Made by a program: the position numbers and the translations under genes. From Psammoneis japonica (lineage: Eukaryota): a stretch of 64,000 bases of DNA. The stretch lies in assembly GCA_008632985.1 (NCBI GenBank), contig QPGO01000270.1, positions 1 to 64,000 of the forward strand, read 5' to 3'. Each line of letters begins with the position of its first letter. The first letter of the stretch is position 1. Positions 31,111 to 59,206 of the stretch are shown here, in pieces. A model generated the notes under the pieces. The model was not told the origin of the DNA and did no database searches. It saw only the letters and a program-made list of their open reading frames with translations.

Positions 31111-31149
31111 TTGCAAAGGCGGGTCCGGCTCATCATCATCCAAGATTTT

Positions 31150-32900
31150 TTTCAGCTCATTCTTGCACACATGAACTCGCCTGCCAAGGGCAACGCAAGT
31201 GGGAAGCTTTTAGTCTTGCCCTCTCCTGCCTGGTTGTTTTTGAACCTCAGGGCTCACCCCCTCAAACTCCAACATCTTTGCCATGCATCCATCCTCCAGA
31301 TGCCTTGTGCATGCAGACAGGTTGTTGTCATCCACTTCTTTTGATTCCAGAGTTGTCTTGTCCTCCTCATGGGCTGCGTGTTCAACAAGTTGCGCTGGAG
31401 CAGAGACTTCTCGGTCATGCAATGTGGAGCTGGGATGTTTTTCCAAGAGCAGGGGTTGTTGTGAAACTGCCAGTCTTTGAACAAATCTTTCAACAACGTG
31501 GAAACCATCATTTTCTTGTTGTCCTTTTTCTCAGACACAGCCCTGGCTGCTGAATTGCATGTCAAAGTTCTTGCAGCTGCTGGAAGAAAGTTTGGTGCTG
31601 CAGCAGGTGTGGTTGCGGCAGCAGCACTGGGTGTGGCGGTGGCAGCACTGGGTTTGGTTGCAACTGGTGGAGCTTGTGCAGGTGAGGGCACTCATGGTCT
31701 TGGGCTCTTGTTGCTCTCCTCTGTGTTGCTGTTTCTCTGGGGTGCTGCCTTGATGCTCTGGCTCCCAGCAGAGTTTTCAATGGTGACAGCTTGTTTTGTG
31801 ATGCCTGGAGTTCTTGTTGTTGCTCCTGCATTTTGCTGTTGTTGCTGGTGCAGGGTCATTTGCAATGAGGCAAGAGTGCAGTGATCAACTCTTTTTCTTC
31901 TACCAGCATTGCCACCATTTGCCTTGGTTCCAACAGAACATTTGACTGTTGATTGACAACCGCCATCACTTGGGCCTGTCCTCCACCTGGAGCAACTTGG
32001 GCCATTTCTGGATTGCATTTTTGGAAGTCTTTCATGATTGTGGTGGACCACTCATCAAGAACAGCCTCTGGAGAAATCCCTGGGAATCAGGCATTGGAAA
32101 TGCTTGCACTTCTGGCAGCAGTGCGAAGTTTCGTTGCCACTGCATTGTGGTCCTTGCACTCTTGGGTCACTCGGACATGATGCATCATCAATGGTGCAAG
32201 TCCCGTCCAAAGGATTTGGTGCAGCCTGACACGCTCCAGCTCTGGGTGGGACCTCGTGCTGCTGAACTGTGACATCAACAGTTTTTTGGATCGCGCCGCA
32301 TGTCGCGCATGTAGATGGCTGTGTGTGATGTTCTACGAAATTGTTTCATGCTTCATGTTTTGCAGAGCCAAAGGCTTTCTATTTTCAACATTTGTGACAA
32401 TGAGAGTGTGCTGGGCACATTCTTTTGTGTCTGTAGAACACACCCATGCAAACTGTTGTTGATGCACTGCAAGTGTGAAGGAGGAGATGTGTTCATAAAA
32501 TTGCCTCTTTTTCTGTTGGTGATCATTCACATTTTCATTGCTCAACAAATTTGCTGTGGAGCTCGCACGCAGAATTCTTCATGCCCAATGTCACACAGAG
32601 TCCCACCTGGGATTGGAACCCGTTGCCCGCTCTGCTTGTCTTTAAATCCCTGCACTGAAATGACAAATGTTTTCATCAGCAATTCCTCCACCTGTGCAGC
32701 AACATGCATTCCCAGGCTCTCGAGTCGGGGGACCCTTGTGTTGACATCAACGTCATCATGTCGACAAAGGGCCTCAGCAGCTCTGGGTCCCAGCACAAAC
32801 AAAGTGCAGTCTGCACGGGAATCCAACAACATGCCAGTGGTGTGCCCTGAACGACAACAAACACACCAACGGCATCCACCTCACTCGATGTTTCAGTGGC
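31150..32900 (-). mobile_element. Decayed tyrosine-recombinase (Crypton-like) element, interrupted by a MITE
   Basis: CRSGHTTGMLLDSR resembles the YR G-H/W...Y box with Tyr replaced; downstream APLMMHH...KLRTAAR...VLDEWSTTIMKDF; recalled similarity only. Confidence 0.45.
32228..32624 (+). mobile_element. MITE, older diverged subfamily
   Basis: gacacgctccag...ttggaacccgtt; TSD GCCT/GCCC; body aligns with the 24154 copy. Confidence 0.75.
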
Positions 32901-33806
32901 TGTGTGCTCTCTGTTTAGACAAGTCTGCCGCCAGATGAAGGACCATGTCAAAGCAAACTGCGCGGCACAATCCTCATCTGGTTTCCTTTTCTTTCCTTGT
33001 CTGGGAAAATTCAGGGCTGAATTTTGTCTTGTGCGTCGTGCGCAGAAGCTGCACCCCACGCATGAAAACTGCAGAAACATCGCCACACAGACTCTGGTGC
33101 AAATTCCATTTTCGCGAGGTTGTCCACACGGAAATGGGCACAGTGCACAGGGAAAAAGGAGGGAATCAGACCATTGAGCACACACAAATAAAAGATGAGA
33201 GCGCATTCAGTGCAAGAGGTGGCGAGAAAACCAGAGGCAACAGGAATCATTCGGCCCTGAGAGTCATCACGTAGAAATTGTGTGGAAGAGCACCAAAAAT
33301 CATTGTTGTCAGTCTGTCCATCAGTCCACACATGAACATCAACTTCTCGGGAAATCAATTGAAATTCTGTCTGATCGACGGTATTTTGATTCACATGGTG
33401 AAGGCCAACACCGTCGATCAGACAGCATTTCAATTCAGTTCCCGAAAAGTTGTTAGCTCTAATCACTCTCTCGCATGACATTGTGTACATTTCTACACGA
33501 TTTTGTGTTTTTCCTTATGTAAAATATTAATTATGACTCATGCGACATTTTCGAATGATTCCTGTTGAGACCTGCAGTGGATTCTGGCCTGTTCCAGCTC
33601 CAGGTGATGCGCACGGGTTCGATTCTATGGGCACAACATCCAGTAGAAACCGTTCCATAATCAACTTTATATAGAATTGAAAGAATCAATAAATTTGGTG
33701 TTCGCCGAAACTTGACTAGTTCGACTGATTGTTTTTGCCCACTACTGCACGCTGAACAAGGTTGTGGTGGAAACGTTGTTTCATTATCTGAGCCTGTGGT
33801 TTCATC

Positions 33807-34112
33807 GACGCGTTCCAGCCCTAGTAGGTGGGAGCTCGTAGTACTGACGTGTGACACAAATAATTTTTATCATCCGTCGTATGTTTCGCACGTACATTTC
33901 TACGTGTGACATTATAAAAAAATTGTCCAGACTCGCTGTTTTGCGAAGCCCCAGACGTTTTATATAAACAAATTTATAGAAACAAATGTGCACCAGTTAC
34001 ATTCTTAAATGTCTGAAGAATGTTGTTACCGTGTAATTTTAATACAGAGCTTGCACGTAGAATTCTACGGGCCCAATGTCACACGGATTCCCACCTGCGT
34101 CTGGAACGCGTC
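33807..34112 (+). mobile_element. MITE, internally deleted, least mutated copy, no TSD
   Basis: Perfect TIRs GACGCGTTCCAG...CTGGAACGCGTC; flanks CATC/GGTG do not match. Confidence 0.9.
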
Positions 34113-35025
34113 GGTGACAATTGTTGCAATCTGCCACTCTTGGGAAGAGCAGTGCTGCCGGCAGAATTGCAGGCACCGGGAACAAGCAAGACCACGTTGC
34201 CATGAGTCATCAATCCACCTCTCGCAGGAAGAGCTGCATTGCTGGCAAGTGCCGCCAGGAATGAGTGTGATGTGCAACCGCACTGCTGCGAGCAGGTGGG
34301 CAGGAGCACGCAGCAGTTGGGTGGGTGGCATGATTTTTTTGGTGCGTGTCAAAGACTTGTGCACTCCAAATTCTTGACACCACTTGTTCCCATTTCCAGC
34401 ACTGATCTTTCTGCTTGCTGCATGTTTTCCAGGGTTTGCACCATTTTGCACAGGTTGATGTGGAGCGCACTTGCTCTGCTGGTGGAGTGAATGGATGGGG
34501 AAAGTGAGCTCTGCTTGATTTGCATGCACCCCACCAAAGGTGGTGTTGGAGCAGACAGACAGGTGCATTAGAGAAGGTGGCACATCAGTGCCAGGCAGAA
34601 GGGGAAATGCTGTTGATCAATGTGCACTCTGCTTTTTCACTCCAACCATGTGCGCTCCCTTTGCAACGGGGAACCCGTCAACATGTTCACTCATCGGGGT
34701 CTTGCACACAGAATGTGGCACTCTGAATGTTCAAGTTTTTTGGTCGAACCCGATGCCTTGAAGGCATTGACAGCATGAAGCAAATTCTGTGCCATTCTGG
34801 CCCATGCAGCCACAAACCCAAACAATGCCCTGGTGTCCTGCTGTTTGCGGTTGACATGCCCCAAGTCTCTCACAGAGGCATGTGTTCTTCAAGCCAGCCA
34901 GAAGGTCAAGAGTCACATCATCAACACACAGCCCTGCACACCCAATGCTTTGACAGTGCAAGGGGGGTTTAATCTGGCAATTAACATGGTGTTTGCCAAC
35001 AAGCTCCTGCTCTTTCTTGCCTCCA

Positions 35026-35297
35026 GACGCGTTCCAGCCCTGGGTGGGAGCTCGTAGCACTGACGTGTGACACAAATAATTTTTGTCATCCATCGTGTGA
35101 ATGTCTGAAGAGGCAACTGGCCAAGTAAAAAATGATGTGCTTCAATCATGTGCGAGTTTGTGCGTTCGCAAAATTGCCTCATTTTCTGTTGGCGAACATT
35201 GACACTTAAATTGCCGTGTGATTTTACTGCGGAGCTCGCACGTAGAATTCTGCGGGCTCAATGTCACATGGATTCCCACCTGCGTCTGGAACGCGTC
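35026..35297 (+). mobile_element. MITE, internally deleted
   Basis: Perfect 12-bp TIRs; TSD TCCA. Confidence 0.92.
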
Positions 35298-37046
35298 TCC
35301 AGTGCCATGCAGTTCTTTTGCCAAAAAAGACACTTGTTGTTGTGCTCAAATGACCAATCCCATCTTGTTGCAGCGCTGCCAAACTCAACGCACGAGGCAG
35401 CCAAAACACATCATTTTGGCACAGAGAACATTGTCCAGCTTGAAAGCTTGTGTGCTGAGCTGGTTGGGACAAACTAAATGCACAACCCACAGATGCTGCT
35501 GGCTGATGCAAGAACCACTGTCAAATGCTGTGCTCCCAGAGTTTTGGTTGAGGAATGGTCTGCTGGCAAATGGGTGGAGAAACAATGATGATGACAAACA
35601 ATGCAGCATTTTGACTTCCATGAGTGCAGACACATGTGTTTTGTGATCAGCACCTTCTCTGTCTCCAGACAACAGAAGAAAGCTCACAAACACAGAGCAA
35701 ACCACAGACGCAAACAAAAAGGGAATCCTGTGTAAAATGCCATGAGATTGGCCATGAGAGCCCAGCATGGGCAATTGTTTCCCGAGAAAGGTGTGCAAGT
35801 TTTGCCAACTCATGCTGTTTGTCTGAGTTGCATCTGGAACTGTTCAATTCCAGATTGGGGCAATCCACCAGAGCTGTGTTTGTCCACTCTAGAGCTGGTG
35901 CAACCTGCCCCCGCATGCAGAGTTCTGCCAACAAGTCGCTGCGCAGCAGTGTGTGGTTGTTTTTGACAACTTCTCTCTTGACTTCATGACTGCATGAGCA
36001 GCTCCAATCAACAATGTGGAGCAGTTGTTGTGTGTTTTGAGATGGAAATGACAGCATGCTGTGCCGCTCTTTTTCTGAAATGGACCTGCCACAGTGAAAG
36101 AATTTTTCAGGTGTTTTCGTGCATCGCAGAAAGCCACGCACAAGGACCCCCAGACATGGAAGAAACCTCACAGAGCAGCTTGGATGTGGTGGATTGAGCA
36201 GCATTGTTTGCAAGCTGAGAGATTTTAGACCAGGTGGTCTGAGCAGACTGAGAAGTGGGTGCAAAAGCTCTCCACTTGAAAGTTCTCACTGAAGACACCC
36301 CACATGGAGTCTGTCACGCTTGCATTGGACAAAAGAGAAACAACACATGCAGACTCAACAAAATGTCATGGTTCAATGGCATCCTTTTTGTGCTCATTGG
36401 TCTGAAATTGCTGCTGCTGTGGGCGCCCATGCTGTTTCTGCAATGCTTCGTTGTCGCTCCGCAACAACACATCGCAACACTTGCCCCCCAATCTAGCACT
36501 GTTTAATTCCAAATTTGTTCCAATGCAGAACTGTGGACTTCCAGATTGTCCCAGTCTAGAACCACACAACAATTCTGGATTATCCCAATCTTGAACAATT
36601 TTGGAATTGTGTTGGTCCAATCTAGAATTGCGCACACCACGTTCTGCCTTGCAGAATAAAGAGACAAATTATGCATGACCAAACCTGTCCATTGTGACCA
36701 CTGAAATACTCTATGAAGAGTCATTTGTTAGAAAAAAGACTTTTTCAGGTCATTTCGTGGATGTTACTGGAAATGTATTACAGTACGATCGTGTCTATTG
36801 CCCACGACAGGAAATGACAGTTTGGGGCTTTCGCGCGCGTTGGTTCACAATTTTTCGACTTTCAACTGATGCTTTGGACATTTCTGGACGATGATATTCC
36901 CGCAAATCATACCGTATGAATAGTCCTGTGCACGACCCAACGCCTCACTCCCCCGCAAAAAAAAAAAAAAAACATCACTCTCTTGACTTCCTCACAATTT
37001 GCCGTTTGGGATAAAGTGAACGCTCCCCCATCCCTCCCTCTTGAAT

Positions 37047-39171
37047 ATGAGGTTTTCCCTACTTCTACCGGTACTTACACTCTTATCCTTCTCCAAGGAC
37101 GCTGTGGTCTTCTCGCGTGAAAGCGGTAAGTGTTGAACCTTGAACCGCGGTATCCGCCACAATCCGTTCCAGGATATAAAATCGCAACTCACGTGCATTT
37201 TATCTCCATTTGCCTCCCACCTATACAGGAAACTCCAAAGGTCGAGCTTTAAATGGAAGAAAACTCGAAGTCGTTGCTTCCGGAGTCTCAAAGCAAGTTC
37301 GCGATCTCCCGCCAATCAAGCGCAACCTCGACCACCTCGACCTCTCCAAAGTTGGCAACGAGTCTCTCGGCTATCGCCACTATCCCCTGTGGGACTACGT
37401 TCCACGTGATAAGACTGATGACAGCAAGTTGGAGGAGGATGGCGCGATTGACTTAGGCGAGGATGCATCCGGTATCCCTAGTCCACTGCTTTCTTTTGAA
37501 GGCATCAACCAAGTCGACAACGCAATTCTTTTTGGCCTTATTTTTTCTCCTTCTGATCCAGTAGGCGACGTCGGTCCTGATCATTATGTTCAAATGGTAA
37601 ATAATGCCTTTGCTATCTGGGACAAGGAAGGGAACATTGAAAAGGAACCTACCGCACTTGGCGATCTGTGGGAGGGGTTTTCTGTGCCAGATTGTGCTGA
37701 CAGCAACGGCGACCCGATTGTTCTGTACGACCAGTTTGAAGATCGATGGCTCTTGACGCAGTTCACAACAGCGGGTCCATTCTTTTACAATTGTGTTGCA
37801 ATCTCTAGGACTGGAGATCCTCTTGGTGACTTCAACTTGTACGCATTCCAATCGCAAGACGATCCCAGTGATGACACAATTGGAATTTTTCCAGACTATC
37901 CAAAGTATGGCGTTTGGACGGACTCGTATATTTTGACAACACGAGACTTTGGCATTGGAGACAACAGCTACTTTGGTGTCAGTATATATGCCTTGGAAAA
38001 GAGCAAGATGGTGGCAGGAGATCCTAATCCCGGTGTAGTAAGATTCTCTCAGCAGCAATCCGATGGACCAAATGGGTTTAAAATTGGTGACGGACTTAGC
38101 ATTCTCCCTCCCGATATTGATGGCGACAAACTTCCACCGCCAGGAGCACCTGCGCCTCTTATCTCAGAGCAGGATGATCTTTTTCCTTTCAATGAATTTG
38201 ATGGAGTGAATATCTGGGAATTAACAGTGGATTGGAGCAAAGTTGAAGCAATGTTAATTGTGAAAGAATCCCTCAAGGTTGCATCATTTGCTATTGATTT
38301 ATGCCCAACTTTTACTAAAGACTGCATTGAACAGCCGGGTTCGGATCAAAAGTTGGATGCACTTACGCAATTATCGATGCATCGATTTGCCTATCGTAAC
38401 TTCGGCTGTCTTGAGTCAATGGTTGTGTCTTCGGCAGTCAAGGCGAGGGAGAACGTAGGTGAGCTACAAATGATTCTTCATTTCCACAGGATTGTCAATT
38501 GTCAACATGTTGTCTAACGCGATATTTGCTACCTTGAAGCTGGTATGCGGTGGTATGAGATTCGTAGGATCGATGGCGAGTACACGATTCACCAGCAGAG
38601 CACTTTTTCTCCGGACGATGGGAAGAATCGTTGGATGGGCAGCGTGGCTCAGGACGGTGCGGGCAACATTGCAATGGGGTATAGTGTCACTGATCCTGAG
38701 GATGAAGTAACTGGATATCCAGGAATTCAGTACACGGGTCGTCTGCTCAATGATCCGTTAAACAAGATGACTCTTGGCGAGGCTGTTTTGGCCACAGGAT
38801 TAGCCGCGCAAGAAGGTAGTAATCGCTGGGGGGATTACTCCTCAATGAACATTGACCCAGTGGATGACTGCACCTTTTGGTACACGAACAATTATGTTCC
38901 ACCTCTGCAAGCCTCATTTAGCATTCCAGTTTGGAACAGTCGGATTGGGAGCTTCACTTTGCCGGGTTGTCTAAAAAAAACAGGGAAAATGAGTGGCAAA
39001 AAAAGCAGCAGCTCAAAGAGCAGTAGCTCAAAGAGCAGCCGCTCAAAGAGCAGCCGCTCAAAGAGCAGCCGCTCAAAGAGCGGTGGTAAAAAGGGCCGCA
39101 ACAACCCCGTCTGCGAGAGTTTAAGGGGCAAAGGAGGAAAGAAAGGCAAGTCATCCAACAAATCACGGTGA
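37047..39171 (+). CDS. Secreted protein with a bacterial-type domain (P.D.VGDVGPDHYVQMVN ... RWGDY) and a Ser/Lys-rich tail; introns 37126-37228 and 38459-38539
   Basis: Signal peptide MRFSLLLPVLTLL; GT-AG splicing keeps the frame; GDPIVLYD, FPDYPKYGVW, AGMRWYEIR, RWMGSVA, DDCTFWYTN. Confidence 0.85.
39001..39081 (+). repeat. Coding 15-bp minisatellite (KSS[S/R]S) x5
   Basis: aagagcagccgctca repeats. Confidence 0.9.
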
Positions 39172-39499
39172 GTTCATGCTAGATTGTTTAATCCTTGGCC
39201 TCGGCCAAAACTGTGATAGATGCATTTATAGTAGTAGCAGCTGTGCTAGCTACGGCACTTGTAGCTGCTTCAAACAACATTTTGGCTGATGTTGGATGAA
39301 GTTGAAAATGATAACGTCTCGCCACATTGAGAAGAAGTGAGTTGAGCAACTCCTCATGTGCCAAGCGCAGAAACAGCTTGTGCTGGTGTGAGCTTGCCTT
39401 GCTGACATTGTCAGTTCAATGCAACATAATGCAAGCTGTAGATCAGATGCACTGAAAAGTGTGCTAATTAGGAGTGGGGATATGCTGCAGATCAGACAC

Positions 39500-42400
39500 A
39501 CTGTAAAAGTGTGCTCATTGGGTGTGGGGATGCAAGCCATGTGATTGCGTCACCCCTGCATGGTCCGGCCATCTTCCAGACACCAGGTGTCAAGCCTGCT
39601 TGTGGTTTGTTGTTGCATGTGATGCCTGTGAACGCTGCTTCTTGTACATGCCATTGCTCTTGCGGTGGCAGTTGCCATGACAATTTGTGAGGGTCCAGAG
39701 GTCATTGTGGCCTCTTGCTGTGGCAGTTGCCATGACAATTCGTCAGGGTCCAGAGGTCATTGTGGCCATTGTCTCCACCTGTGCTGTGTCCAACATGGTG
39801 GAATGTTCTCACTCAAGAACAACAACTGTGAGTGGTTTGTGATCTCATTTGCAACACCTCCAAGCCCTTTCAATTCTTTTTTCTGTCCCATCTCACCTGA
39901 CTTTCTGACCCAACCATGCGGGCAATTCTTTCACATGCGTGGCCAAACAAAAGAAAGTGAAAAAAATGGGGGATTCCACAAACAAGGCTGGAGATTCATT
40001 GGCTAAATTTTTGTTTTCTGGGTGGTTGCTGCAGGCACAAAAGGTGAGTGCATGTTGCAGCTGCAGGGTCAGACCATGTGAAACAGAGTGGTGTGCACCA
40101 CCAAGCTCCAAGCTGAGCACCCAAGACAAGCTTTGAGCCAAGAAGCCCAGGGCACCAGCCACCACCTTCACCTCTGCTGCATCCCACAGGTGCTCTCCTT
40201 TTGCAGCATTGTGCTTGTGGATGACAAAAAGCAACAATGGAGTGGTCTGTCTTGGTCAGTGTGCAGTGTCACTGGCATCAGAGGAACAGCTTGGGACATG
40301 TGTTTGGGTCACAATCCAATGTGATTTTGTGAGAGCTCACATGCAGAGACAAGTGTGGTGACAGAAGAAAGGCAAGAGTGTTGCAACACAAGCCACACAA
40401 TGCTGCATCTGCATTCATTTGCTTTGTCAGAGCCAAAGTCTGTTGTTGAGCATCTGAGTGTGACAAAGTCATCATTGCATGGGCATGAAAGAAAATGGCA
40501 TGTGCAGCCATTCATTGCTGTGCAGAGTCACATGGGTGTCAGCCGCAGAAACAGTGCTGGATTCTGCGTGTGCGCATTGCACAGCATCAGATTTTTGCAA
40601 TGAGTGCAAGCCAACAATGAGAATCACTGTGCAAATTAATTGGCTCTCAACATGTGTGCAAGGTGTCGAACATGGCAGTGTGGGGCAGTGAGCACAGAGC
40701 ATGTGCTCACTCAGACAAAATGGCATGGGGTGGCCTCTCATTGCCAGTTGACTGTGTGCATCTGTTGCCACAGTGCTCACAGAGCACCCAGTCTCCCATC
40801 CATGCCCGCTGTGAAATTCTCACAGTCACTGCAATTTGATTGTCTTTGTGACATGGGAGACATGGCAGCAGCAGCTCAAGCTCAGGCAGCGTTGGTGGCT
40901 GGTGCCAGCAGTGGATGTTGTTGACAATGTTCTGCAGACATGCGACATTGCCAACATCAATGCAAGAGCTTGCTTGGTGTGCCATGATGGATTTGCGACT
41001 TTGGAAAATGCTGCAGTTGTGAAAGGCAACTTGGACGTGGAAGACATGGCAAACAGAGTTGGTCTTTGTGCTGACCAGGATGGGAGAGCAACTCTTGATG
41101 CTGTTCAAATTAAAATTTGCAAGCTTTGGTCTGGTGGCTCAATGACTGTCAGAAGCACAACTTTGCATTGGATGCAGCACTGTTTAATCAGGTGGCACTG
41201 GCTGGTGCTTGCCAGAAGAAATGCGCTGAAAAAGACATGTTTGAATCTGAGGTGTTGGTCAGTTCCTTGCTGGCATTCACGTCAGAGGACTTTGATGTGA
41301 TGGAGGATGCATTGTGAACCTCTTGTCACAGAAGATTGGGGTGTTGAAAGAACCACTGTGTTGTGTGACAAGGCCAGATGGCAGTTCCGGCCACATTTGC
41401 TGACGCTGTTGAGGAGTGCATGCATCAATTGAGTTTGAATGGGATGGCATTCGACCAGGACAATCTTGCTGTGTTGTGTCTGCTAAAAGCCCACCTGGTG
41501 TGCACGGAAGTGGCTGCTTGTGATTGAAGCCTGTGCAGTGCAGAGAACAGGAGGAATCTGTTTTGGGCATGAGCAGACCACTGCAATGGACAGGGAGAGC
41601 TTGGCAAGTGCACTCAGCTGGCATCAGCAAACATCAAGTTGCTGCATTGTGAGAACAAGCACCACTTGTCATTTGAACGGCACATGGCAAAACTTGCCAG
41701 TGCACACTTGCAACCTTGGCAAAGGATGAGGACCAGTGTGCTGAGACAGACAGGCAGAAAGTTGAGTTTGTGCAAAGGGCATTGAGACCAACAATGTTCT
41801 GCTGCAGGCTTGCATTCCTGTGATCAGCCAGCAATGTCCTTGTGGCTTCCCTGGCGCATGTGCACTCTTCTCTGCTGAAGTTTCTTGTTTGCATGGCGCA
41901 TCTCAGTCAGAGGTTCAGTGTCGTTTGAAGATCAACCACCAACCTTGAATCCCACTTTGTCACAAAGGACCACCTTGCTGACATGATCAAGGAGCAAGCA
42001 ACTGGAATGCCCAAAGGCACAACTTGTCTTGCATGATGATGCCTTGCAAGTTCTGGCTGGGCAAATCAAGACAGTTGCCAATGCCTCAGAGCCCGCTTGT
42101 CTTGTGGTTGCAGGGTTTCAGAAAGAACTCGGGGCAAATGTTGTTTGTCCACCCCTGCACAGGATGCAACCAAGGCTCCCACCCCTTTGGATCCAAGTCC
42201 TGCAGTTGCAAAATGCATTGTCTCAGTCTTGGATGGTCTTGCGGATCAACTTGCTGGTTCCTCTGATTTGCCTTCTTCACCGGGTGCCCTGATGTTGGGC
42301 ACAACCTCTGTGACTCCTGACAAAGCTGCCTCCTCATTGGAATGGTGCCACAACACCAAAACATTCAGAGAGACTCCTGGGCCATTTCTTTGCTCCATGG

Positions 42401-45400
42401 ACCCTGAGATGACATTGCTGTCTTTCTGAAAAGCATCCACACCCAGTGCGCCCAGGCCAACATTCCTCTTTGGGACCCTGACACACTGGTTGGGGACAAT
42501 TCAAATTTCTGCAGGCCAATGCTTGTGAGTGTGACTCACTGCCAACTGCTTTGCTGTTGAGATCCACTTGAAATTGGTGCAGGATGATGGCCTTCCCGAT
42601 CCCTGATCATGCAATGGCTGGAAAAAGATCCATGCAGTGTCTGTGGATGGTTTTGCTGTTCTTAATCACATTGCATCTCTTGGTCTTCCCAAACTGACTG
42701 GGAAGGTGGTGGATGCTCCATCTTGGAAGGGCAATCCATGTGAAATAGGTGGCCAATTTTGCTGCACATTTTGCAGTGGCTGAAGCTTTGGCTGCTAAAA
42801 CTGACCCGTCTGCACCACCAGTCTGCTCAAAATGTCACAAATCTGTGAAATTGCTGGAAGCTGTTCCCGCTGGCATGTGCAAACCAGTTCTTCTCCTCAA
42901 ACACCATTTGAGTGAACTCGGTGACTCCACACGCCACTGCTTCATGACTTGCAACTCATCTCTCTGACAACCCAGATTGACCCCAAGCATGCTGCCAATG
43001 CAGATCCTGTGGGCTCCCTGAGTGTGTTTCATGGCCGCCACCAGTGTGGCCACCAGACTCCTTTGCCCAACTGTCAGCACAACCCACTCCAACCCTGGAA
43101 AGATTTGACATGCAATGCTTGTGGTGCATGTGGACACAGTTGCTGCAATTGTCTTGTTCCAGATGGATTTGGAGCATCTCACGGCTTTGCAGCTTTTGGT
43201 CACTCTGGTTTTCTTTGCCAAGCCACAAGTGTCTGTCCCACAAATGCTTTGCAATGAGTGCTCATTGGAAAGGAACTCCCAGACAAAAGCCAAAACTGCT
43301 GCTGATGTGTTGCTTCAGACGGATTTTGAACATCTGATGCCTTTGCGTTGTCTTTCTCATAAATGTTTGCAATGACTGTGTCAGCATGATGAAAGCAAAA
43401 AGCACTGTTTTCTCAATGCACAAATGGAAACACACAACTCCCAACAATTGGCTTGCAACATCCAACTTTGCATCAAACAATGTCTGGTGTCCAGTCATCC
43501 ACACACAACAAACACAACTGCCACTCCATGCTGCTGTGGTGTCACAATGCACAACACATTTCATTCCTTGTCATCAACAGAGCAACAGGACAACATTCAT
43601 CATCAACAGCTTCATCATTTGCTGTTGCAGTGCCTTGGCTTTGCAGAGCAAGTGCCACATGCTCACTCTCATCTGTTTGGTGGCAAAGTTGCAATGTCAC
43701 AGACTCTGTGGAGCCATGCAGCACTCATCCTTCTGTTTGTTGGACCATCAACCAATCATTGTCACAGCCATGTGAGATGCCATGGTGTCTCAAAAACTGC
43801 ACAGTTTCTTGTGTGTGGCACAGTGGTTGATGGTTGACGAGGGTGCTGTTTTTGTGCTGTCACCATTTGGGGCAGGCTTCACACCAGTTTTGAAGAGCAC
43901 TTGATCTGTGAGTTTGTCTCCTCATGTTGCTCCTCCTTGAGTTTCCTGACTCCTTGTGGCTGCCTTGAGTCTTCTTAGAATTGTCCAAGGACAGGCACCT
44001 TTTTGCCTCAAGGATTGATTTTGGCATGGCATTCACTTTTTTTTTTTTTTAGCTGACCATTTGCCTCCATTTTGGCTCTTTCACCAGGCACTCCTGCTTG
44101 CATTTCAAGAAGCACTTGAAGCTTTGGCCTTGTGCATCCTTTGTCATGGTTTTTGCCAGACTTCTTCTTGAAAGCGGCATTCATTTCCTTCACCTTCTCA
44201 TGCATGTCATTTTTTTCTTTACAAGGGCACTGCACTTGAGGAACATTTCAGCACAAAAATCTTCCTTTTTTGCGGTTGGTGCCAATCAATCCATTCACAG
44301 TCATGGTGACACATGCCTTGGTTGTTGGGATGTCTTTGGCTTTAGAGAAATTCAGGCTTTTCTTTTTGATGTGCACAGATTCTTCCTTGACAGCATTGAA
44401 CTGGGCAGGGATCATGACATCTTCATCAGAATCATTGAATGACTAGAAGTTGTCATCATCTGCCTGAAGTTGAGCACTCCTCACCTCCAGAGCCATCTTG
44501 ACATGCAGAGGCATCTCCCTGCTGTTCTCAGCTGCATGTTTGGCTGCAAGTTCCTCAGCTTTTTGGGGGGCTTCAACTGCAGTGTGTGGTGCCACAATGC
44601 AGTGGACACTGTTGCAACAACACAGGCCAAAGTCTGCACCACAGAGACAGTGTGCCTGGCAATCTGATTTCTGTGATGCACCAAGCTCAAATGTTGTTAG
44701 AGGGAGAAAGCCTGCAAGGATTCTGCATCCCTTTTGCACTGAAAATTTGCAATTTTTGTTTGCAGTTCTGGAAGTGGATTGCACCCAAGGCCTGATTTGT
44801 GACTCACTTTCATGAGCCGCAAATCCAAAAAGGGTCATCGCACAAAAAATGTCAATCTCATTTGCATGCAAAGATGTGCACACACAGGTTCACATTTGCA
44901 ACTCACTGGCAAAGATGCTCTCAGCTGTGGTTGTCACCACAAAGACAAAAAGCACACCCGTCTAAACCAAACAATGTGGGAATTGCCCCGCGCACTCATG
45001 TTTTTGTTCCTTCCCCTGAACCCTTTCAGTTGTTCTTTCCCACCAAATTGCTTCATTTTCAAGGTGTTTTCCAAAAGGGTGAGGTGATTTCCCCTTGCCC
45101 TTGCCATTTTGGGGAATCCCCAAATGAGCAAAACCAAACTGAGGTGTGCAGAGAGAAAGTGCCTTGATCTCAATCTTCACACTGATCGATGATGGTGCTC
45201 CAGTCATCTCTTGGCTGGCCTGTGTCAACAAGCGGTCAATTGGATGGAAATGTGGGGTTCCTTCTGCAACATTGCAGGAATTGAAGTGTTCTTCAAATTG
45301 CTTGAAGAAAGCAAGATTGTCCCTGGGATGGCGCTCCAGATGCATGTGGGAATCCGTGTGACATGCATGTTGAGCCCGTGGAATTCTGCGCACAAGCTCC

Positions 45401-46100
45401 GCAGCAAAATTGTTCAGTGATTGACACATCAATGATTGCCAACAGAACAAGGGGCAATTTTGCAAATGCACAAACTCATCTGTGATTTAAGAAATGTCAT
45501 TTTTTGCTCATCTTGGTGCACTCTCATTGTGCTGAACAACACAGCTGGCACATTGATGTTCCCGCAAATGTGTTGAAGAATGACCAGTCTTGGCTTTCGC
45601 AAAACAGGGAGTGTGGAACAATTCTGTGAAAGAAAACATGCAAAAATGTGTGTGCAAAAATGCAAAAGAAAATGAACAACAGCTGTGTCACACATCAGCA
45701 CCGGCACACCAAGCTCTCACCTCTCGTCCAGCACACACACCACTTCAACAATGGACTTGAGCCCACCAGGCAGGATCATTGAGATCAACTGGGGACTTGA
45801 ACAACACAAAATGATCTTTGCAAAGTTCTTTGCTTGTTTGTTCTGGGCAAACAAGATGGAAAGAACAGCTTTCGGCTGACGTGCTTGGTCAGGACAATTC
45901 TTTGAACTTGCTGGAAATGTCAGAGAGAGGCTTCGTGGAAGCAAGGAATGAGATGGATTTTGGGGGAGCACAAATTTGCTGTGCCCAACAGCACCAAGTG
46001 ACAGTTGATGATGTGGTTGTTGTGCTGTTGGATGCTCGAATTGTGAGACGAGATAGAACAGATCTCTCCAAGTGGCAGCCAGAGCCACTCTCTCAGTTAT
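39500..46100. repeat. Old, heavily decayed repeat/pseudogene block depleted of both TpA and CpG
   Basis: TG/CA-saturated sequence; no family confidently recognised. Confidence 0.6.
45327..45725 (-). mobile_element. Diverged MITE relative, reverse orientation
   Basis: ctccagatgcatgtgggaatccgtgtgaca... matches the reverse complement of the MITE 3' end; tgtgtcacacatcagcac matches the 5' part. Confidence 0.7.
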
Positions 46101-46941
46101 CTCGTAGGAATGTGTGTGGTGCTTGAAGCAGCAATCAGAAACCGAACCCAACAGATGTGTAATAAGTCATTTACAAGACTTATTACAAGAGCTATAAGTC
46201 ATTGAAAAGATTCATTGATAGCGAGAATGACTTATTGATCGCTGAAAAACATGTATGTACCGGTATAAGACACGCGAGTGTTTTTACGTACTCAGACATG
46301 GCAGCCAGACATGCACGGCATACCGGTACGGTAGAGAATAGCGCTCCCATGCCATTCGAGGAGATGACAAGCAGATTGATGTTGAGAACACTATGATTCG
46401 ATACAATGACATAACGACAAGGATGGGGCTGAGAACCCGAGTGTCATTGTCGATGAGGGTAGAATTTGAGAACGCAAGTGTCAACGATCCCATAAAAACA
46501 AAGCATAAGCAATGCTCACTTTCAAAACATCAAAGGTGAGCCCTCTTTCCACAGCGTAGCAATAACAATCCTTGATGATACCCCCGCACTCCTTTCTAGA
46601 GCCAGTCCAGTGCTGCATGGATGGAGGAAAATCATTTTTTTCTCAGAAAAGCAGGCGGCGTCGCATCTCTTTCCATGTGCAGGATGCCCGGCTTCTCATC
46701 ATTTTGTCTTTCGAACATGATACGCTCTCTCATAATGTGTTGCTGTTCTTCCTCCAAATGCTATACACACTCACATAATCGATAAACAGGGAGATTCGAC
46801 AAGCAGAACTAGGCGAAAGTTTCAATTGTATACAAGGCAACCAACCCTAACTCTCACTTCTTCAGGTTCTCACAAAGTTCACGTCTCATAGCAAGGTCCC
46901 AAGACGCTTAGTCTCATACTCAACTCTCTCCGAACACACCC

Positions 46942-48337
46942 ATGAAAGGCAAGAAGGCTATCCTCGAGCTTTTGCTCATTCTCGTGGCTGCGTCCATCCA
47001 GGATGCCGGCGGTGAGTGAGAAGACGATTGCTGAGAATCCTCTTTCGACGCGACTACTTGCGAACCCCTTCCAACTACATGATGATTGGGAGATCAGAGA
47101 TGAAGACTTTTGTATGCTTACTCGTGTCTTTTTCTTTCCAATGCATCTGCAGGCCAGGTGCTTGCCCCGAAATCATTTCTCGAGGGTCCAGTCCATCACA
47201 GTCTCCGAGGCGAGGTAAGCCCGTGGATGGCTTGAACCAGGTCTGGCTGACACGAACACCCGATTGATTGCTGTTTTCGTTTCGTCCTTGCATCCCAAGA
47301 CGACGAATATTGACGACAACAAGGAGGAACACCGCTCCTTGGCTGTACCCCCTGGCACTGTGTACAGCTTTACCTTGGTCAATGCCGACACCAATACCGA
47401 CATTGGTCCACTGGAAGACGGTGACATTATCAACTTGGCCGAAGTAGGCACGAAACTCAACGTCCGTGCCAATGTGGACACCACTTTAGGTATTGATGGC
47501 GGCTCTGTGGAGTTTGATCTGAACGGCATTCTTCGCATTGAAAATATGAAGCCCTACGCTCTCTTTGGCGACGACCATGGAAATTACCACCCGGGAACCT
47601 TTCCTCTCGGTGAGAGCAACTTGAAGGCAACGTACTTTGCATTTGACGATGCCATGGGCGGCTCTGGAAGTACGTTGGAAATTTCCCTTTCCACTATTCA
47701 GGGAGCCAAGTGCAACGCCGAAATCATCGATTTTACCACGACAGGAGGCGGCGCCCCCCTTCCAGCAGGCACATACGTGAATGCGGACTGGGCTGCGCAA
47801 GGCTTAAAAGAGGTGTACGCATCCCTATCTCCAGGTAGTGGATTTGGGCCCCCAGTGCCAAGTTCACCGCCTCCGCCTCAGTACCCTCATGGTGCACCGC
47901 GCATCCTTGACACCAGATTCCCTGGAGCCAATCCTGACCTGGGCAGTCCTAACGCGGCCTTTGGCGGTCCCGGTGTTGGATTGGGCGGAGCAGGGCCCGG
48001 ACCAGGTGAAAATCGCTTTTCTCAAGGCAACGTGCTCATCGTTCAAGAAGCGCCCGGGGTCGACAATAGTGCTTCATCTCCATTTTTTGTCTTTGTCTTT
48101 GACAAGCCAGTCAAGTTACACTCCATTGTTCTCATGGGCGGCGGAGACCGCCGAGGGCCGCAGATCGTTATCCGTAAAACTTTTCCTGGGCATGCTCCAC
48201 AGGTTTTGGAATACGGTCACGGTTATGGCGACAATTCTGTGGACCCTCTTGATTTTGGAGATGGAGTCCAGGTCCAAGAGCTCAACATTATTTTCCCTGA
48301 CCCTGGCGCCGTGTCGAAACTCGTTTACTGCCGTTAG
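46942..48337 (+). CDS. Secreted two-module protein; introns 47012-47152 and 47215-47299
   Basis: Signal peptide; in-frame GT-AG splicing; module SFTLVNADTN..I...GSVEF.LNG..RIEN..PYALFGD; module NPDLGSPN..FGGPGVG.GG...GNVLIVQE. Confidence 0.8.
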
Positions 48338-49048
48338 GGCGAATGAGTGGACGAAGAACCGAAGGCGACATTTAGCTTACGCATCATGAGAATCGTTGTC
48401 GAGAAAATACTATGCCATTGAAAAAAAAGAAAAATTAGCTAGTCAAGTAGTCTTCGGTAAGAATGGTAGAACAAAAGAACCGTAAGTTTCAAAGAATATG
48501 TTCGAGACTCGATCAGAGACCGACTGAATGGTGCTTGGCAAGCGTGGACGATCGAAAGGCATCCGATTGCTTGTCACAGCCATGGGAAATGGTAGTCGAT
48601 ATGCCAACCTTTATTGAAATAGCTGCGGTACTCTTGCGAGATGGTGTTCTCCCGCATCACCAGCACTTGCATAGTTATTATAGGCTGGATACTCAGCACT
48701 CCCATCAACACTTTCACGTTCATCCAGCCTAGTGTGGGGAATTTCTTTTGTGTAATATCAGTGTATAAGTACAAGCTTAGCACACTGACCTTGGTAGTTT
48801 GCCCGCCTTGACAGATTGATTCACAACCAAGACAGTGCATCTCAAGCTGCCTCTCTTTTAAAAAGCCTTGTCTTGATTTATTTGGTGTGGGAAAGTATCG
48901 TACCACTGGAAGGAGAAAGCCAATTCAAGTGTACATTTGTTTGTTCCACAGAAACTTGCGTACAGTTTATGATGATCAAATGTTACATAAGGCATGAATT
49001 TATACAATATATGCAAAGAATGCAGTCAATCCTGATCGGATGATATTC

Positions 49049-50335
49049 CTATTCTGTCTTTTTCTTCTTTGCTGCCGAGGCCTCAGCTCCGGCAGCCATT
49101 GCAGCTTTCGCCGATAACTTCTTCTTTTTTCGCTTCGACACTGGCACAAGACAAGGGTTGTTGAGTAAGTCGGGACGAACCATGGTCGGATTTCGGCGCA
49201 GCAGCTCAAAGGAATTGTTGAGATTGTTCAAGCTCCGGTAGTTGATAGAAGTCTTGTAAGACTACCTCGCAAATTCATGTCGTCTCTATACCAGCTATAA
49301 GTGACTCCTGCTGTGTCAAGAAATGGAGGAAACCTCTCTTTTGCCTCAAACGATTCCAGGACTTGCGGGTTTGAATGAACCAAATCGCGGATAACGGGTT
49401 CCCATTGAAAACCCAGACGCAGGGCCGAAAAGATTGGGTTTGAGCCTTTTGTTATCGTCTTGTTCAACATATTTTTCGGGCAGTACTGCATGAAGGTTTT
49501 CCACTTTGTCTCAAGATCCTCGCACTCTGTCAGACAATATAAAACGCAGCAAGTCACAGAATTTGTGTCACACAATTTTTCGTGGTCATATGGTACGTTC
49601 CAATACCTCCCTCCCTTTCTCTTCTTCTGTAGACATTTCGCCATAACTTTGAGATAACGGTAGAACAGCATGAATCTCTCGTGATTCAGGTTTTTGAACG
49701 AAATATATACAAGCGGTTCAGCATCATTCTCTTCTTCGTCGTCGTCGTCTTCGAAAAAGCTTTCCGTAAATATAGAATCTAGCTCTTCATCCTCCCGCAC
49801 ACGCTTGAGCGCATACATGAGAACTTTTGCCGGAAGGGGCTGTTCGCCAGAGAAATTTTGTGCGACTACCCGCTCCACGGCTGGTGGGCACGCATTAAGT
49901 GTTGTCTTGATTTGCTCACTTTCTGGATGGGCATTCTCAATAAAAAAATTGATTAGAGAATCAGCATGTCCGTCGCATGGCTCGAGTGCCATCTTCCAAT
50001 CCCGGTCTGCTCTGACACGAAGCATCATCTCCAAAATACGCGGCGAAATTTTTGCCGGTTCAGGGTGCATTGACATCATCCAATGAAATGCACTCCAACC
50101 ATGATCAGCTTCTCGGAAATCCAGTGCATCTGGATTCAGCTCCAGCAGCCGCCAGACAACATTTGCAGGCACACCCGGATGGAGGATTGCGCAATGGAGA
50201 GGATGTGCTCCACTCAATGCACAATCTTCCATGGTGCCAGCTGCGTCAAAGTCATCCGTCAATGCCATTTCCGGCACTCGATTTAAGTCTTGCAAGAACT
50301 CTTTCCAGTGGATGTTGACTTGATGGAAAGGTTCT
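49049..50335 (-). pseudogene. 3' part of a host gene (ankyrin-like / LRRNP-type C-terminus) split by Copia element 2
   Basis: HPLHCAI, GWSAFHW, NNSFELLRRNP; reading frame continues across the TSD into 58553+; frameshift near 49270. Confidence 0.75.
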
Positions 50336-50806
50336 GGTCGAAGCTCGCGTGTCCGCGCAAGCTCCGAGTGCCTTCCAACGTGTCGACTGGATGTCCACTC
50401 CAGATCGACACCTCAGGCAGAATGCAAGCAGATGGAGTCTGCTGACGAGCAGCAGTGGGCATTTGGTCTTTCACAAAAGTGCTGCTGACCAAATTGTGAG
50501 CTGCCTGGACTGAATCTGCTGAATGCACCCAAACAGAGGTTGATCCGCAGGCTTGTGCTAGAGACCAGCACAAACCTCAGGGTCAACCACATTCACAGCA
50601 ATCATCCAAACACTGCCGAACCGATCTGTGGTTGGTCCAACATCTGTGCAAAGCCTGTGATCTCCAAAGCACCGCCTGTGATCCCCAAAGCACTCGGCTT
50701 GAGAATCAAGTCGACGTGGCGCGAAAAGAATTTTGACAAGAATTCCGACTGATGGAAGCACAGACACAACAGAGAATCTGGGTCGGTGGACAGATGAACC
50801 ACGACT
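50336..50806 (-). repeat. 3' LTR of Copia element 2
   Basis: Direct repeat of 58076-58547. Confidence 0.93.
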
Positions 50807-53731
50807 CTCCCTCTCATTCACAGATTCCAGCAACCAACAAGAAAATCGCAAACGAGAAAGCTCGCACAATTGGCACAAGTTCAGAGCAAAGCTCCTGCAT
50901 CTTGACCGAGCCACAACACACAACAAATGAAGGAAGCGATGCTTCCAAAGTGCTGCCACCCTTGGACCTTCAACCGGTTGTTCTCGAAGAGCTCTCGGGT
51001 CAAAGGCTTGGTGAGACAATCGGCGAGTTGCTCAGCCGATTCCACCTCAATCGCATCAAACTCATCGCAATGCGACCAGAGCCAACGCCACTTGATGAGA
51101 AAACACTTGGCATGATTGGTGATGCGGTGGTTGGCAGCCAGGCAGCAAGCGCCTTGACTGTCTTCGAACACACGCGCACGAACCAAAGTCCTGAGATCTT
51201 GGGAGATGTCCAAGGTGAAGACGATCTCAAGGAGCAGGTTCTTCAAAGGCAGAAGAGTCCGAAGAGCACAGGAGGCGGCTTGGCACTCAGCTTCGAGGGT
51301 GGAGCAGGAAACAGCCGACTGGAGCTGCGATTTCCACACCAAAGGACATCCACTGAGAGTTGTGATGTGTCCGGTGCGTGACCTCACAGAACTCGGGTCA
51401 GAATCCGCTTCGCAGCAACAGAGACCAGCAAAATCGGCATCAACCCATGAATCAAGATCCAAACAACCGGTTGGAGACAGTGGCATCCCCTGATCACGCG
51501 TCCTCTTCAAGTGGCGGACCAGAGTCTTGACGGCGGTTGCATGCGACTGTTTTGGGTTGGAGTTGAAGTGCACAACCTGACTGACGGCGAGGGAAATGTC
51601 AGGACGGGTGTTGGTGGACAGACACAGGAGCATTCCAATGACCAAGGGACAGCTCCAGTCCTCCTGCATGGGATCTCCGTCTGCATCAGTGCCGAGAGCT
51701 TGGGACACTGCAGGGAGCAAGTTCGGTTTGCTGTCAACCAAGCCGGCAGCTAACAGGATCTTGTCAATCAACCCTTTCTGCGTCAACTTGACAGCACCAT
51801 CGTCTCTCCTTTCGAACTTGACACCCAAGAACTCGGTGAAACTGCCCTCCTTTGTCAATTCAAATCCTTTCTCGCGCAGCTGAAATGTCAACTGATCAAT
51901 GGTGGACTCCTGCGCTGCACTGATCCCACAATCGTTGACATGCAGGCAGACCATGCAATCATGGTGAAGCAGGAGACATTGGTCGCACTCGCTTTGGATG
52001 AAACCCAAGTCCAAGAAGGCTTGCAGACAATGTTCGTGCCACAACTTTGGAGCCGAAGAGAGTCCACAGAGACTCTTGACGAGCTCAAGACAAGTCTTGG
52101 GTCCTTTCGTCGAGCTGAAACCTCGTGGAAGATGAGTCCAAACTGGTTCTTCCGCGGGAAGCACTGCTTGAACGAATGCGGACTGGAAATTGGCGGATGC
52201 CGCATGCCATCCAAGAATGAGACTCAATGCCAAAAACACTCGAACCGTGCTCCAGGCTGCAACCGGTGCATGAGTGTCAAACAGACTTCCTTCCTGCAGA
52301 TCGCCGCGACAACAGCAGCAAGCCTTGTGCTTCTTGATCTCGCCTGAAGGTGATCGCTTGCGACGAAATGCCCAAGTGCCGGGAAGGATCTTGGTTTGAG
52401 CATCAGACACAGGTGCCTCGACCCACGTTCCTTGATGGACAAGTGCTGCAATCTCAATCTTAGCCGCCTTCAACCACTTGACGCGATCGGAAGAGTGCAT
52501 GGCCTCGTCCCACGACAGCGTGTCCGGATCCTTGACTTTGCGCGCCGACGCCTTGTGTGCGGCAGGAGCAGTCATGGACATGTTGCAACCATGGTCAAAC
52601 TTGTGTGCATGATGGAAATCAATGAAGTGGGACAAGCATCCGTGTCCCTGAGATCCATCACATCCAAACCACTGAGGTGCAGCGCGAGTCCGGGTTGAGC
52701 AACGAACTGGGGTTGGAGAGGGGCGTTGTGCGCTGGGTGGAGCCACAGGTGGTGACTCCCTCTCTTGACCGAGATCCGAAGAAAGACTTCGAGGGGTGGG
52801 AGGCTCCCTCTGAGGACTTGGTGGGGCATTTGAGTTGGTGGCGGGTGCTCTCTCCCTCTGAGGCGAGTCTGAAGCCACGGGTTCTCAGTGGGAGACTCCA
52901 ATGGAGGCATGGACTCCACCTCAGGGACCGGGGGTTCCACAACGGGACTCGAGGGGGCTTTGGGAGAAGACACTGGTGCTTGAGCAACCGGAGGAGGGAC
53001 CTGCAAGGGTTTGGGAGGCGACCGGCGGGTGACGGTTTCGCGGATTTCCTCAGATCGGCGCTCACATTCTGGGCATTCTTGATGGATGTCGATGTCAGCC
53101 TGCTCTTCATCATCCATGGCACATTGACACACACTGTCTCTGAAAAGAGACGTCCATTCCAGAGACCCAACGGCAGGTGACGAGCTGGCATCGGCAGGAA
53201 CCATCGCAAACCAACCATCAAAAACGACATGGAATTGTGGAGTGATGGCTCCTGTTTCAAGACTCAAGACTGGCGGGACTGACGAGGCATGCTCGGGGCT
53301 GAGTCCCACACAGACATGCCGACTCGCGTGGGGTTTCCACTTCGGCAGTTTCTTTCCATCGGCGAGTGTTTTGTCAAGAACGCAAACAGGGCACCCCCAA
53401 ACATGACAATCCTGGAACCGAGAGTGAGGATTGCGCGTCTGGGTGAACACATCCTGTGGACTTAGACCCGCAGATGGGTCTGGCATCGCATCACAAAGCA
53501 TGACAGCGTGGTCCACAGCCAAAGGCCAAAGAGTGGCATCCGCAACATCAGGCCAATGGATCGCCGCATGCAACATCATGCTTCTCGCGATCGACATTGT
53601 AGTGTGCATTGCTTGTTCACAAACTCCATTGTGATGGTGAGCTCCTGCACCGGCATGCTTCGAAACTTGAGCAAAAGATTCCAAGTGAACCCTGAAATTG
53701 GCCAACGTGAACGCCTTTCCGTTGTCGCTCA

Positions 53732-58547: not shown

Positions 58548-58552
58548 GTTCT

Positions 58553-59039: not shown

Positions 59040-59206
59040 TGTAGAAGCACTTCAAATCACAAAAAGTGAAGCAAGCAACAAGTGACACAGCTTGTCATCG
59101 CTCATCGCCACAGCAAATGACGGGGCGGCGGGGTGTGGGGTCTTCACGGTGAAAGGTGAAAGGGAAGAGAGAAACTGCGTAAAATCCCTCTCTGCTGGAG
59201 AGAGCA

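Follow-up and report, generated by a model that had tools for sequence, protein, structure and literature searches.

The closest described counterpart of the process considered here comes from the chlorarachniophyte Bigelowiella natans, in whose mutation-accumulation lines integrated giant-virus and virophage DNA undergoes de novo TpA>TpG/CpA hypermutation (Mettrop et al., bioRxiv 10.64898/2026.01.13.699255). As reported in that preprint, the changes are exclusively A>G/T>C, all lie at TpA, yielding TpG or CpA depending on the strand, and affect foreign DNA only, the rest of the genome being normal; TpA-depleted coding sequences are enriched in reverse-transcriptase (RT) and DDE domains, and an ADAT2-like adenine deaminase is proposed as the agent (10.64898/2026.01.13.699255). 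This is the single prior description of TpA hypermutation of invading DNA: a full-text literature search returned no description of TpA erasure in diatoms, and none of the process besides the preprint. We analysed 64,000 nt of eukaryotic nuclear DNA from the diatom Psammoneis japonica (contig QPGO01000270.1, positions 1–64,000; hereafter, the window), in which transposon-rich blocks have lost nearly all their TA dinucleotides and the few survivors carry a characteristic signature in their flanking bases. Whereas the B. natans mutations were observed in mutation-accumulation lines, the diatom offers only a fossil record in transposons. The main text of the preprint, supplements aside, contains no flanking-base analysis, the words 'context', 'trinucleotide' and 'tetranucleotide' being absent (10.64898/2026.01.13.699255). 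The flank fingerprint described below is thus a new and useful property of a process described once before.

Repeat-induced point mutation (RIP), known from Neurospora and other ascomycetes, acts at CpA and creates TpA. TadA and ADAT2-ADAT3 deaminate an A that follows a 5' U or T, with a pyrimidine (C35) next in the bacterial tRNA-Arg site, and engineered TadA acts on single-stranded DNA. ADAR performs A>G editing with a 5' U preference, is often aimed at repeats and acts on double-stranded RNA; fungal mRNA editing invites the same comparison. As listed in the respective sources, RIP is a C>T change (PMC7296669), the tRNA-site preference of TadA is 5'ACG and that of ADAR 5'UAG (PMC10661471), and natural EcTadA does not mutate DNA, the amphioxus ADAT2 acting on E. 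coli DNA with a preference for 5'GAA at A and 5'TCG at C (PMC10354150). Within the literature examined, DNA context has been measured for no natural ADAT2 other than this amphioxus enzyme.

A two-state hidden Markov model (HMM) of TA density divides the window into eight normal segments (18,446 bp in total) and nine depleted ones (45,483 bp). The observed/expected ratio (o/e) of TA is 0.52–0.78 by segment in the former (0.59 pooled), where that of CG is 0.77–1.15, and 0–0.16 in the latter (0.07 pooled). Segment borders are abrupt, with copia elements, their long terminal repeats (LTRs) and copies of a miniature inverted-repeat transposable element (MITE) falling in depleted segments and neighbouring genes spared; as in B. 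natans, the loss is local, affecting mobile DNA and leaving the adjoining normal DNA intact. From normal to depleted DNA, the o/e of CA rises from 1.28 to 1.63 and that of TG from 1.19 to 1.67, whereas the other 12 non-CG dinucleotides shift by at most 0.10 (for depleted versus normal DNA, AA 1.20 v 1.12, TC 1.04 v 1.08, GC 1.13 v 1.03). About 95% of the TA steps in the transposon-rich blocks have been lost to TG or CA. Only TA is affected, AA, CA and GA being retained, such that the target A always has a 5' T, as expected of TadA/ADAT2-type enzymes, and A>G/T>C change is confined to TpA, as in B. natans.

The change occurs in DNA after insertion, on both strands, and is confined to mobile-element domains. 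Action after insertion is evident because the LTRs of one and the same element differ at sites with TA in one copy and TG or CA in the other: such differences make up 29 of the 45 in the copia B pair and 13 of the 20 in the copia A pair. At 15 sites, one copia B LTR carries TG and the other CA; strand-coordinated runs in these LTRs (10 vs 5) show no clustering evident by eye. At 42 codons that are mostly Tyr in 240 intact homologues, the copia copies of the window encode 21 Cys, 10 His, 2 Tyr and 9 other residues. The process resembles RIP in being aimed at repeats, with sharp domain borders, in acting on both strands of DNA and in having a dinucleotide target with a flank preference. The direction of change is the opposite: TpA is destroyed and CpA/TpG created, and the C>T change at CpA is not what is found here.

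Separately, in the Tyr codons of the copia A RVT_2 region and of the copia B coding part (Table 1), Cys, the outcome of sense-strand A>G, is twice as frequent as His (binomial p=0.07). This excess may reflect a transcription- or replication-strand asymmetry.

The surviving TAs are far from a random sample. The sequence-only reading of positions 39,500–46,100 had reported roughly 20 TAs, about 14 of them in the context YTAR (Y, pyrimidine; R, purine), and counting bears this out: 21 TAs remain of the 447 expected from base composition (o/e 0.05), comprising 14 YTAR (five TTAA, four CTAA, four TTAG and one CTAG), four RTAR, two YTAY and a single RTAY. Within the depleted block proper (39510–46044; hereafter, the target block), YTAR accounts for 14 of 18 TAs, compared to an expected share of 0.30 derived from the block's own N-T and A-N neighbour frequencies (binomial p=4e-5) and to 137 of 801 in the normal DNA of the window (Fisher p=5e-8). 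The same skew is seen in the other depleted blocks, whose 182 TAs include 75 YTAR, 96 mixed (YTAY or RTAR) and 11 RTAY (Fisher p=1.6e-11 vs normal DNA). All depleted blocks pooled hold 89 YTAR, 99 mixed and 12 RTAY among 200 TAs, against 137, 439 and 225, respectively, in normal host DNA. As a baseline for intact transposons, we fetched 80 metagenomic relatives of the copia RT (395 kb) and used the 58 with a TA o/e of at least 0.5 (315 kb), in which YTAR, mixed and RTAY sites number 2795, 7463 and 4205 (19/52/29%); these shares are almost equal to those of the host, and the baseline is therefore robust. Across all eight depleted blocks longer than 900 bp, the YTAR share is 25–78%, versus 17% in host DNA and 19% in the intact copia relatives.

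The check proposed with the sequence-only reading was whether NTAN survival is uniform after normalisation for composition. It is not: uniformity is rejected at p=1e-24 to 1e-30 (chi2=161, df 9, against the host; 130 against intact copia). Survival ranges from 0 for ATAT through 0.01 for ATAC/GTAT, 0.03 for ATAG/CTAT and 0.06 for ATAA/TTAT and GTAC to 0.12–0.16 for GTAA/TTAC, CTAC/GTAG and CTAG and 0.23–0.30 for TTAA and CTAA/TTAG. An additive half-site model, with a per-strand term set by one flanking base, fits these values (p=0.16-0.24). The next base matters as well, TARA being most spared and TAYY most affected: as half-sites, TAAA and TAGA survive best (0.25–0.27), and TATC, TATA, TACT and TATT worst (0.01–0.03). 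In the young MITE family, compared with its unmutated copy, RTAY is kept at 1 of 18 copy-sites and the other classes at 19 of 59 (p=0.03, copy level). The YTAR share tends to rise with erasure depth over the eight blocks (Spearman rho -0.5, p=0.21), a non-significant trend that makes it a possible practical marker of that depth.

These preferences separate the process from the known adenosine deaminases to different degrees. TAG half-sites survive five times as often as TAT and about 1.7 times as often as TAC, so that G at +1 (the base 3' of the A) is disfavoured relative to T and C, unlike in ADAR; furthermore, DNA changes after insertion, in LTR pairs and in a DNA-type MITE, with both strands affected equally. 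An ADAR-like enzyme was therefore considered and is contradicted by the survival of TAG and by the divergence of LTR pairs after integration. The context fits TadA only loosely, as judged from the sequence: the T before and the pyrimidine after the A agree, but T at +1 is at least as favourable as C, and TACG, with a half-site survival of 0.125 vs 0.011–0.047 for TATC, TACT and TACC, falls short of the optimum. The 5'GAA preference of the amphioxus ADAT2 for adenine is likewise different from the context seen here.

The sequence-only reading had further argued that, since no context other than YTAR places a purine after the A on both strands, the preferred substrate would be 5'-TAY. The logic is sound. 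Survival is symmetric, however: in xTAy, the top-strand A has x at -2 (the base before the T) and y at +1, and the bottom-strand A is flanked by the complement of y at -2 and that of x at +1, so 'Y at +1' and 'R at -2' predict the same survivors, and the TAY reading therefore needs a test of direction. At mixed sites, a pyrimidine requirement at +1 predicts YTAY>YTGY and RTAR>RCAR, the mirror requirement at -2 predicts the opposite, and recognition of the duplex predicts a 1:1 outcome. We counted direction events only where an outside reference or a surviving TA was available; direction cannot be read from LTR sites that have TG in one copy and CA in its partner, and identical changes in both copies escape notice. 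Events were drawn from the MITE family compared with its 33796–34120 copy, the tandem repeat at 1234–1810, the two LTR pairs, codons that are Tyr or Ile in 240 intact homologues, and single-step differences of run X1 contigs from the window. The replacements Val>Ala, Leu>Ser/Pro and Ile>Val were left out, as the other possible product is silent and hence unscorable.

The direction rule held in 33 of 49 distinct events, a bias of about 2:1 (binomial p=0.021). By data set, events following and opposing the rule numbered 12:7 in the MITE family, 9:3 at Tyr codons after a pyrimidine, 5:3 in the tandem repeat, 2:2 at Ile codons, 2:1 in the LTR pair of copia A and 3:0 among three single events; by source tetranucleotide, they numbered 10:2 for TTAC, 13:6 for CTAC, 6:4 for TTAT and 4:4 for CTAT, with a balance of 7:6 at GTAT. 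The bias is concentrated at TAC sources (23:8, p about 0.01). In a joint maximum-likelihood fit to survival and direction, the mirror model, with an effect at -2 only, is rejected at p=2e-7. The full model gives relative factors of 3.3 for T, 2.6 for C, 1.7 for G and 1.1 for A at +1, and of 1.0 for A compared to about 0.5 for C, G and T at -2. The bulk products point the same way. Relative to intact copia, CpG-retaining copia blocks have gained 12.4 YTGY+RCAR and 6.9 YCAY+RTGR per kb, a ratio of roughly 1.8:1, and lost 21.1 YTAY+RTAR per kb, the gains approximately matching the TA loss; in the five CpG-poor blocks, the ratio of the two product classes is 1.32–1.67, in every case at or above the maximum of the intact loci. 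This asymmetry is consistent with the rule but does not prove it.

Several observations weigh against a TAY substrate or limit it. At TAT sources there is no direction bias (10:8), although TAT half-sites vanish fastest; accordingly, a pure +1 model is rejected in the joint fit in favour of one in which A at -2 doubles the rate (p=0.019). A palindromic model trails the full one only at a borderline level (p=0.06 and 0.02 with the transposable-element and host baselines, respectively). The evidence on direction is thin: it consists of 49 events, some with shared ancestry, drawn from six kinds of comparison. The Cys:His ratio is 9:3 after a pyrimidine and 12:7 after a purine (Fisher p=0.70), and the overall 21:10 Cys excess might reflect a sense-strand effect. 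The ratio of YTGY+RCAR to YCAY+RTGR in the three CpG-retaining blocks is 1.05–1.17, a range covered by the scatter among 34 intact loci (0.996, sd 0.16), and the higher ratios of the CpG-poor blocks are confounded by CpG decay, which itself feeds TG and CA in a flank-dependent manner. The young MITE family keeps YTAR (3/11) no more often than mixed sites (16/48). Finally, low-TA stretches of the metagenomic copia relatives show no YTAR excess (9/70), so that the rule is not replicated outside this genome; these relatives are essentially unmutated, and even the two loci with the lowest TA content keep Tyr at 6 and 4, respectively, of 11 conserved sites. The TAY reading is, then, mainly right but incomplete: the rejection of the mirror model and the 33:16 direction count uphold it, but the bias resides at TAC and not at TAT, and A at -2 and the base at +2 count as well.

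We propose that transposon domains undergo A:T->G:C change at TpA, in which the two strands behave as near-independent half-sites with rates set by the flanks, through an adenine deaminase of the TadA/ADAT2 kind acting on repeat chromatin, and we put the probability of this reading at roughly 0.6. A TA would become TG when the A of the top strand is changed and CA when that of the bottom strand is. The rate of each largely independent half-site would be set mainly by the base 3' of the A (T>C>G>A), with an approximately twofold boost from an A before the T and a further effect of the base at +2. RTAY, favourable on both strands, would be lost first, whereas YTAR, unfavourable on both, would persist, which would explain its prevalence among the survivors at 39,500–46,100. 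As for the chemistry, adenine would be converted to hypoxanthine on transiently single-stranded DNA by a deaminase of the cytidine deaminase (CDA) fold, probably directed to silenced or methylated repeat chromatin.

The best-surviving alternative is that the mutator reads the double-stranded tetranucleotide, through its shape or ease of opening, favouring R-TA-Y symmetrically and altering a random strand, with no single-strand TAY substrate. Survival alone is fully symmetric, the likelihood of a symmetric model is nearly that of the +1 model, and its deficit against the full model is the borderline one given above; direction is balanced at TTAT, CTAT and GTAT; and ATAT, the most flexible step, has no survivors, compared to 58 occurrences in normal DNA (18,446 bp) and 1199 in intact copia (315 kb). 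Random choice of strand is difficult to square with the overall direction count and still more with that at TAC sources, and the full model has a threefold range at +1 but only a twofold one at -2, and there for A alone. We consider duplex recognition unlikely.

A second alternative places the lesion on the thymine: in silenced repeats, oxidation of the T of 5'-R-T-A-3' by a TET/JBP-type dioxygenase would yield 5-hydroxymethyluracil (5hmU) or 5-formyluracil (5fU), which would mispair with G and produce T>C. As RTA is the reverse complement of TAY, the footprint would not change, and the sequence cannot tell which base of the A:T pair is chemically altered. There is a precedent in dinoflagellates, where, according to one source, a TET/JBP homologue makes 5hmU that marks and silences transposons, and where older work found T to be replaced preferentially in TA and TC (PMC11572971). 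In the diatom, TC is not depleted (o/e given above), and the dinoflagellate TA-plus-TC pattern is therefore not reproduced; moreover, conversion of about 95% of sites by way of oxidised thymine would have to be assumed. This route appears improbable.

The remaining explanations carry still less weight. In the second phase of antibody hypermutation, polymerase eta generates A>G at WA motifs, with a 5' T or A, and the TA>TG change with its 5'-T requirement resembles this activity; error-prone patch synthesis of this type could, in principle, be recruited repeatedly to repeat chromatin. It would be expected to affect both halves of the motif, but AA is not depleted in the window, and the spectrum seen, with about 95% of TAs converted and hardly any other substitutions, does not resemble that of polymerase errors. 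In addition, copia blocks whose CpGs are preserved (CG o/e 0.6–0.7) have lost their TAs completely, and the loss is therefore independent of mismatches arising from deamination of 5-methylcytosine (5mC). A polymerase source is very unlikely. Slightly weaker again is the notion that the YTAR excess reflects composition, or TAs newly made by C>T at CA/TG after erasure. Old blocks must hold some regenerated TAs, and TT and AA are the commonest neighbours. However, the neighbour-frequency expectation is 0.29–0.30 for YTAR and 0.21 for RTAY, compared to 0.445 and 0.06 observed (p=6e-6 and 5e-9); the CA/TG sites that could give rise to new TAs are distributed about equally among the four flank classes, from which regeneration would yield about 25% of each; and the young MITE family already shows the RTAY deficit. 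Composition and regeneration are largely refuted. Nanopore data contain systematic miscalls at methylated motifs, and a modified base at TpA of repeat chromatin might be miscalled by a long-read basecaller while the TAs are present in the cell. Such an artefact is scarcely credible, given that contigs of run X1 cover the block (82% of sampled 31-mers of 36500–46000, though X1 may be the source of the assembly), that partly mutated copies, TA/CA allelic differences in one run, CpG decay and indels are unlike basecalling error, and that the B. natans lines gave the same spectrum as real mutations, as reported in the preprint (10.64898/2026.01.13.699255).

With the flank fingerprint, 'some A-to-G mutator' acquires a substrate specificity that can be tested. 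The fingerprint argues against ADAR-like and polymerase-eta-type sources; it predicts that candidate enzymes deaminate TAT and TAC faster than TAG and TAA. A natural DNA adenine deaminase would be of interest to both genome-defence biology and base-editing technology. A more specific form of the deaminase reading, which we hold only tentatively, is that diatoms possess a chromatin-targeted DNA adenine deaminase that acts strand-wise on 5'-(A)TA-Y-Y-3' as a transposon-killing defence, the flank fingerprint being its substrate signature. Such an enzyme would be the A-to-G counterpart of fungal RIP and of APOBEC, and by the fingerprint (T>C>G>A at +1, A at -2, pyrimidine at +2) it could be picked out from candidate deaminases and matched to the Bigelowiella process.

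The depleted DNA is of two kinds, CpG-poor (CG o/e 0.08–0.45, GC content 0.45–0.50) and GC-rich copia DNA with most CpGs kept (CG o/e 0.6–0.9). Because copia DNA can lack TAs yet retain CpGs, TA erasure does not require CpG decay, which it may precede. CpG decay is itself flank-dependent, with YCGR most depleted and RCGY best kept, and with WCGW (W, A or T) lost most and SCGS (S, C or G) kept: in the CpG-poor blocks (22,415 bp), survival is 0.12–0.22 for TCGA, ACGT and ACGA/TCGT and 0.56–0.82 for GCGC and CCGC/GCGG.

Comparison with run X1 suggests that TA erasure is recent or continuing, as its contigs and the window disagree over TA or CA/TG at sites inside depleted blocks. Across the target block there are 4–12 differences per 0.6–2.2 kb, and in the depleted blocks (34523–45972) they are mostly TA vs CA/TG and CG vs TG/CA; as run X1 may be the source of the assembly, they may be haplotype differences, and they indeed look like haplotype or strain differences arising from the TA and CpG processes. 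Among them are the only RTAY survivor of the target block (39645) and a CTAA (42796), and at 39674, 39744 and 43787 the X1 contig keeps TA where the window has TG or CA. Three adjacent double differences, with CA in the window and TG in the X1 contig, were also seen.

RIP acts on duplicated sequence. Most of the depleted DNA of the window is repeated, and the contig depth in run X1 over 40.2–41.9 kb is about 5–10 times the single-copy level. The stretch at 41940–44500, by contrast, has single-copy depth (57–78) at a likeness of at least 80% and is as TA-depleted as the repeats; erasure is therefore not limited to DNA repeated today. This stretch may be a very old diverged element, or the process may spread over a chromatin domain instead of following repeats. 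Apart from a diverged MITE copy, repeats within the target block are short and at chance level only; 22 of its 23 open reading frames (ORFs) of at least 100 aa have no Pfam family at E<=0.05, Rfam finds no family in 36–50 kb, and the window holds no tRNA genes. The ORF at 43393–43827 (+, 145 aa) has a weak match to Pfam A_deamin (adenosine-deaminase, editase; E=0.005, 16.7 bits, cut-off 27), which we rejected as most likely fortuitous, the translation of TG/CA DNA being rich in Cys, His and Ser; against 1.84 billion representatives, phmmer found one hit for it, P0122 (E=4e-6, six short stretches, no Pfam family), and the neighbouring frames had no match at E<=10 in the protein search.

The mobile elements of the window include Ty1/copia retrotransposons with RVT_2, gag_pre-integrase and zf-CCHC domains, whose polyproteins have named relatives at 47–52% identity from the pennate diatoms Fragilaria crotonensis, Cylindrotheca closterium and Mayamaea pseudoterrestris, in keeping with a diatom origin. 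The MITE-like element measures about 390 bp, has terminal inverted repeats and is represented by five closely similar copies or fragments (likeness about 90%) and three older copies (about 70%; Table 1); one sits inside copia B. The family is very abundant, as the summed contig depth in run X1 over MITE bins is 1,900–72,000 vs about 57 for single-copy DNA.

Table 1. Features of the window discussed in the text, with counts of surviving TA steps
Feature	Coordinates	Strand	Content
189-bp tandem repeat, 2.7 copies	1234..1810		In otherwise normal segment; source of direction events
Depleted block	5082..16813		Copia element A (+), then CpG-poor part at 13-16.8 kb; 52 TAs: 21 YTAR, 7 RTAY
CpG-retaining part of this block	5082-13000
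CpG-poor part of this block	13001-16813
Copia A	LTRs 5900-6179 and 12677-12956	+	RVT_2 11052-12428
Depleted CpG-poor block	20888..26176		19 TAs: 8 YTAR, 0 RTAY
Depleted CpG-poor block	29092..33453		20 TAs: 5 YTAR, 2 RTAY
Least mutated MITE copy	33796..34120	+	In normal HMM segment; almost unmutated; unmutated reference for direction test
Other MITE copies	24152-24560, 32220-32630, 35017-35305, 53725-54135, 60741-61140, 63187-63600		The copy at about 53725-54135 lies in copia B
Depleted CpG-poor block	34077..36492		13 TAs: 7 YTAR
Normal left flank	36494..39504		TA o/e 0.55, CG o/e 0.77; ORFs 37210-38517 and 38545-39171
Target block, TA-depleted and CpG-poor	39510..46044		18 TAs (o/e 0.04), 14 YTAR; CG o/e 0.17; CA and TG o/e 1.9
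Diverged MITE copy	45331..45701	-	Inside target block (45325-45710 with margins); 69-76% to other copies (self-BLAST); depth 1870-2715 in run X1
Normal right flank	46054..49954		TA o/e 0.59, CG o/e 0.87
Depleted CpG-retaining blocks	49961..63996		Copia B, MITE insertion at 53732-54128, further repeats to window end; 68 TAs: 31 YTAR, 2 RTAY
Copia B	LTRs 50337-50806 and 58077-58547	-	RVT_2, gag_pre-integrase, zf-CCHC; coding part 50881-57800

A trace of the process is also seen outside the large blocks. The copies of the tandem repeat differ at 10 sites by TA vs TG/CA, indicating partial erasure in a small repeat. Inside the long ORF 27774–28925 of a normal segment, 313 bp (28597–28909) contain no TA (CG o/e 1.14), a stretch that may be due to chance or may be a small erased patch in a gene.

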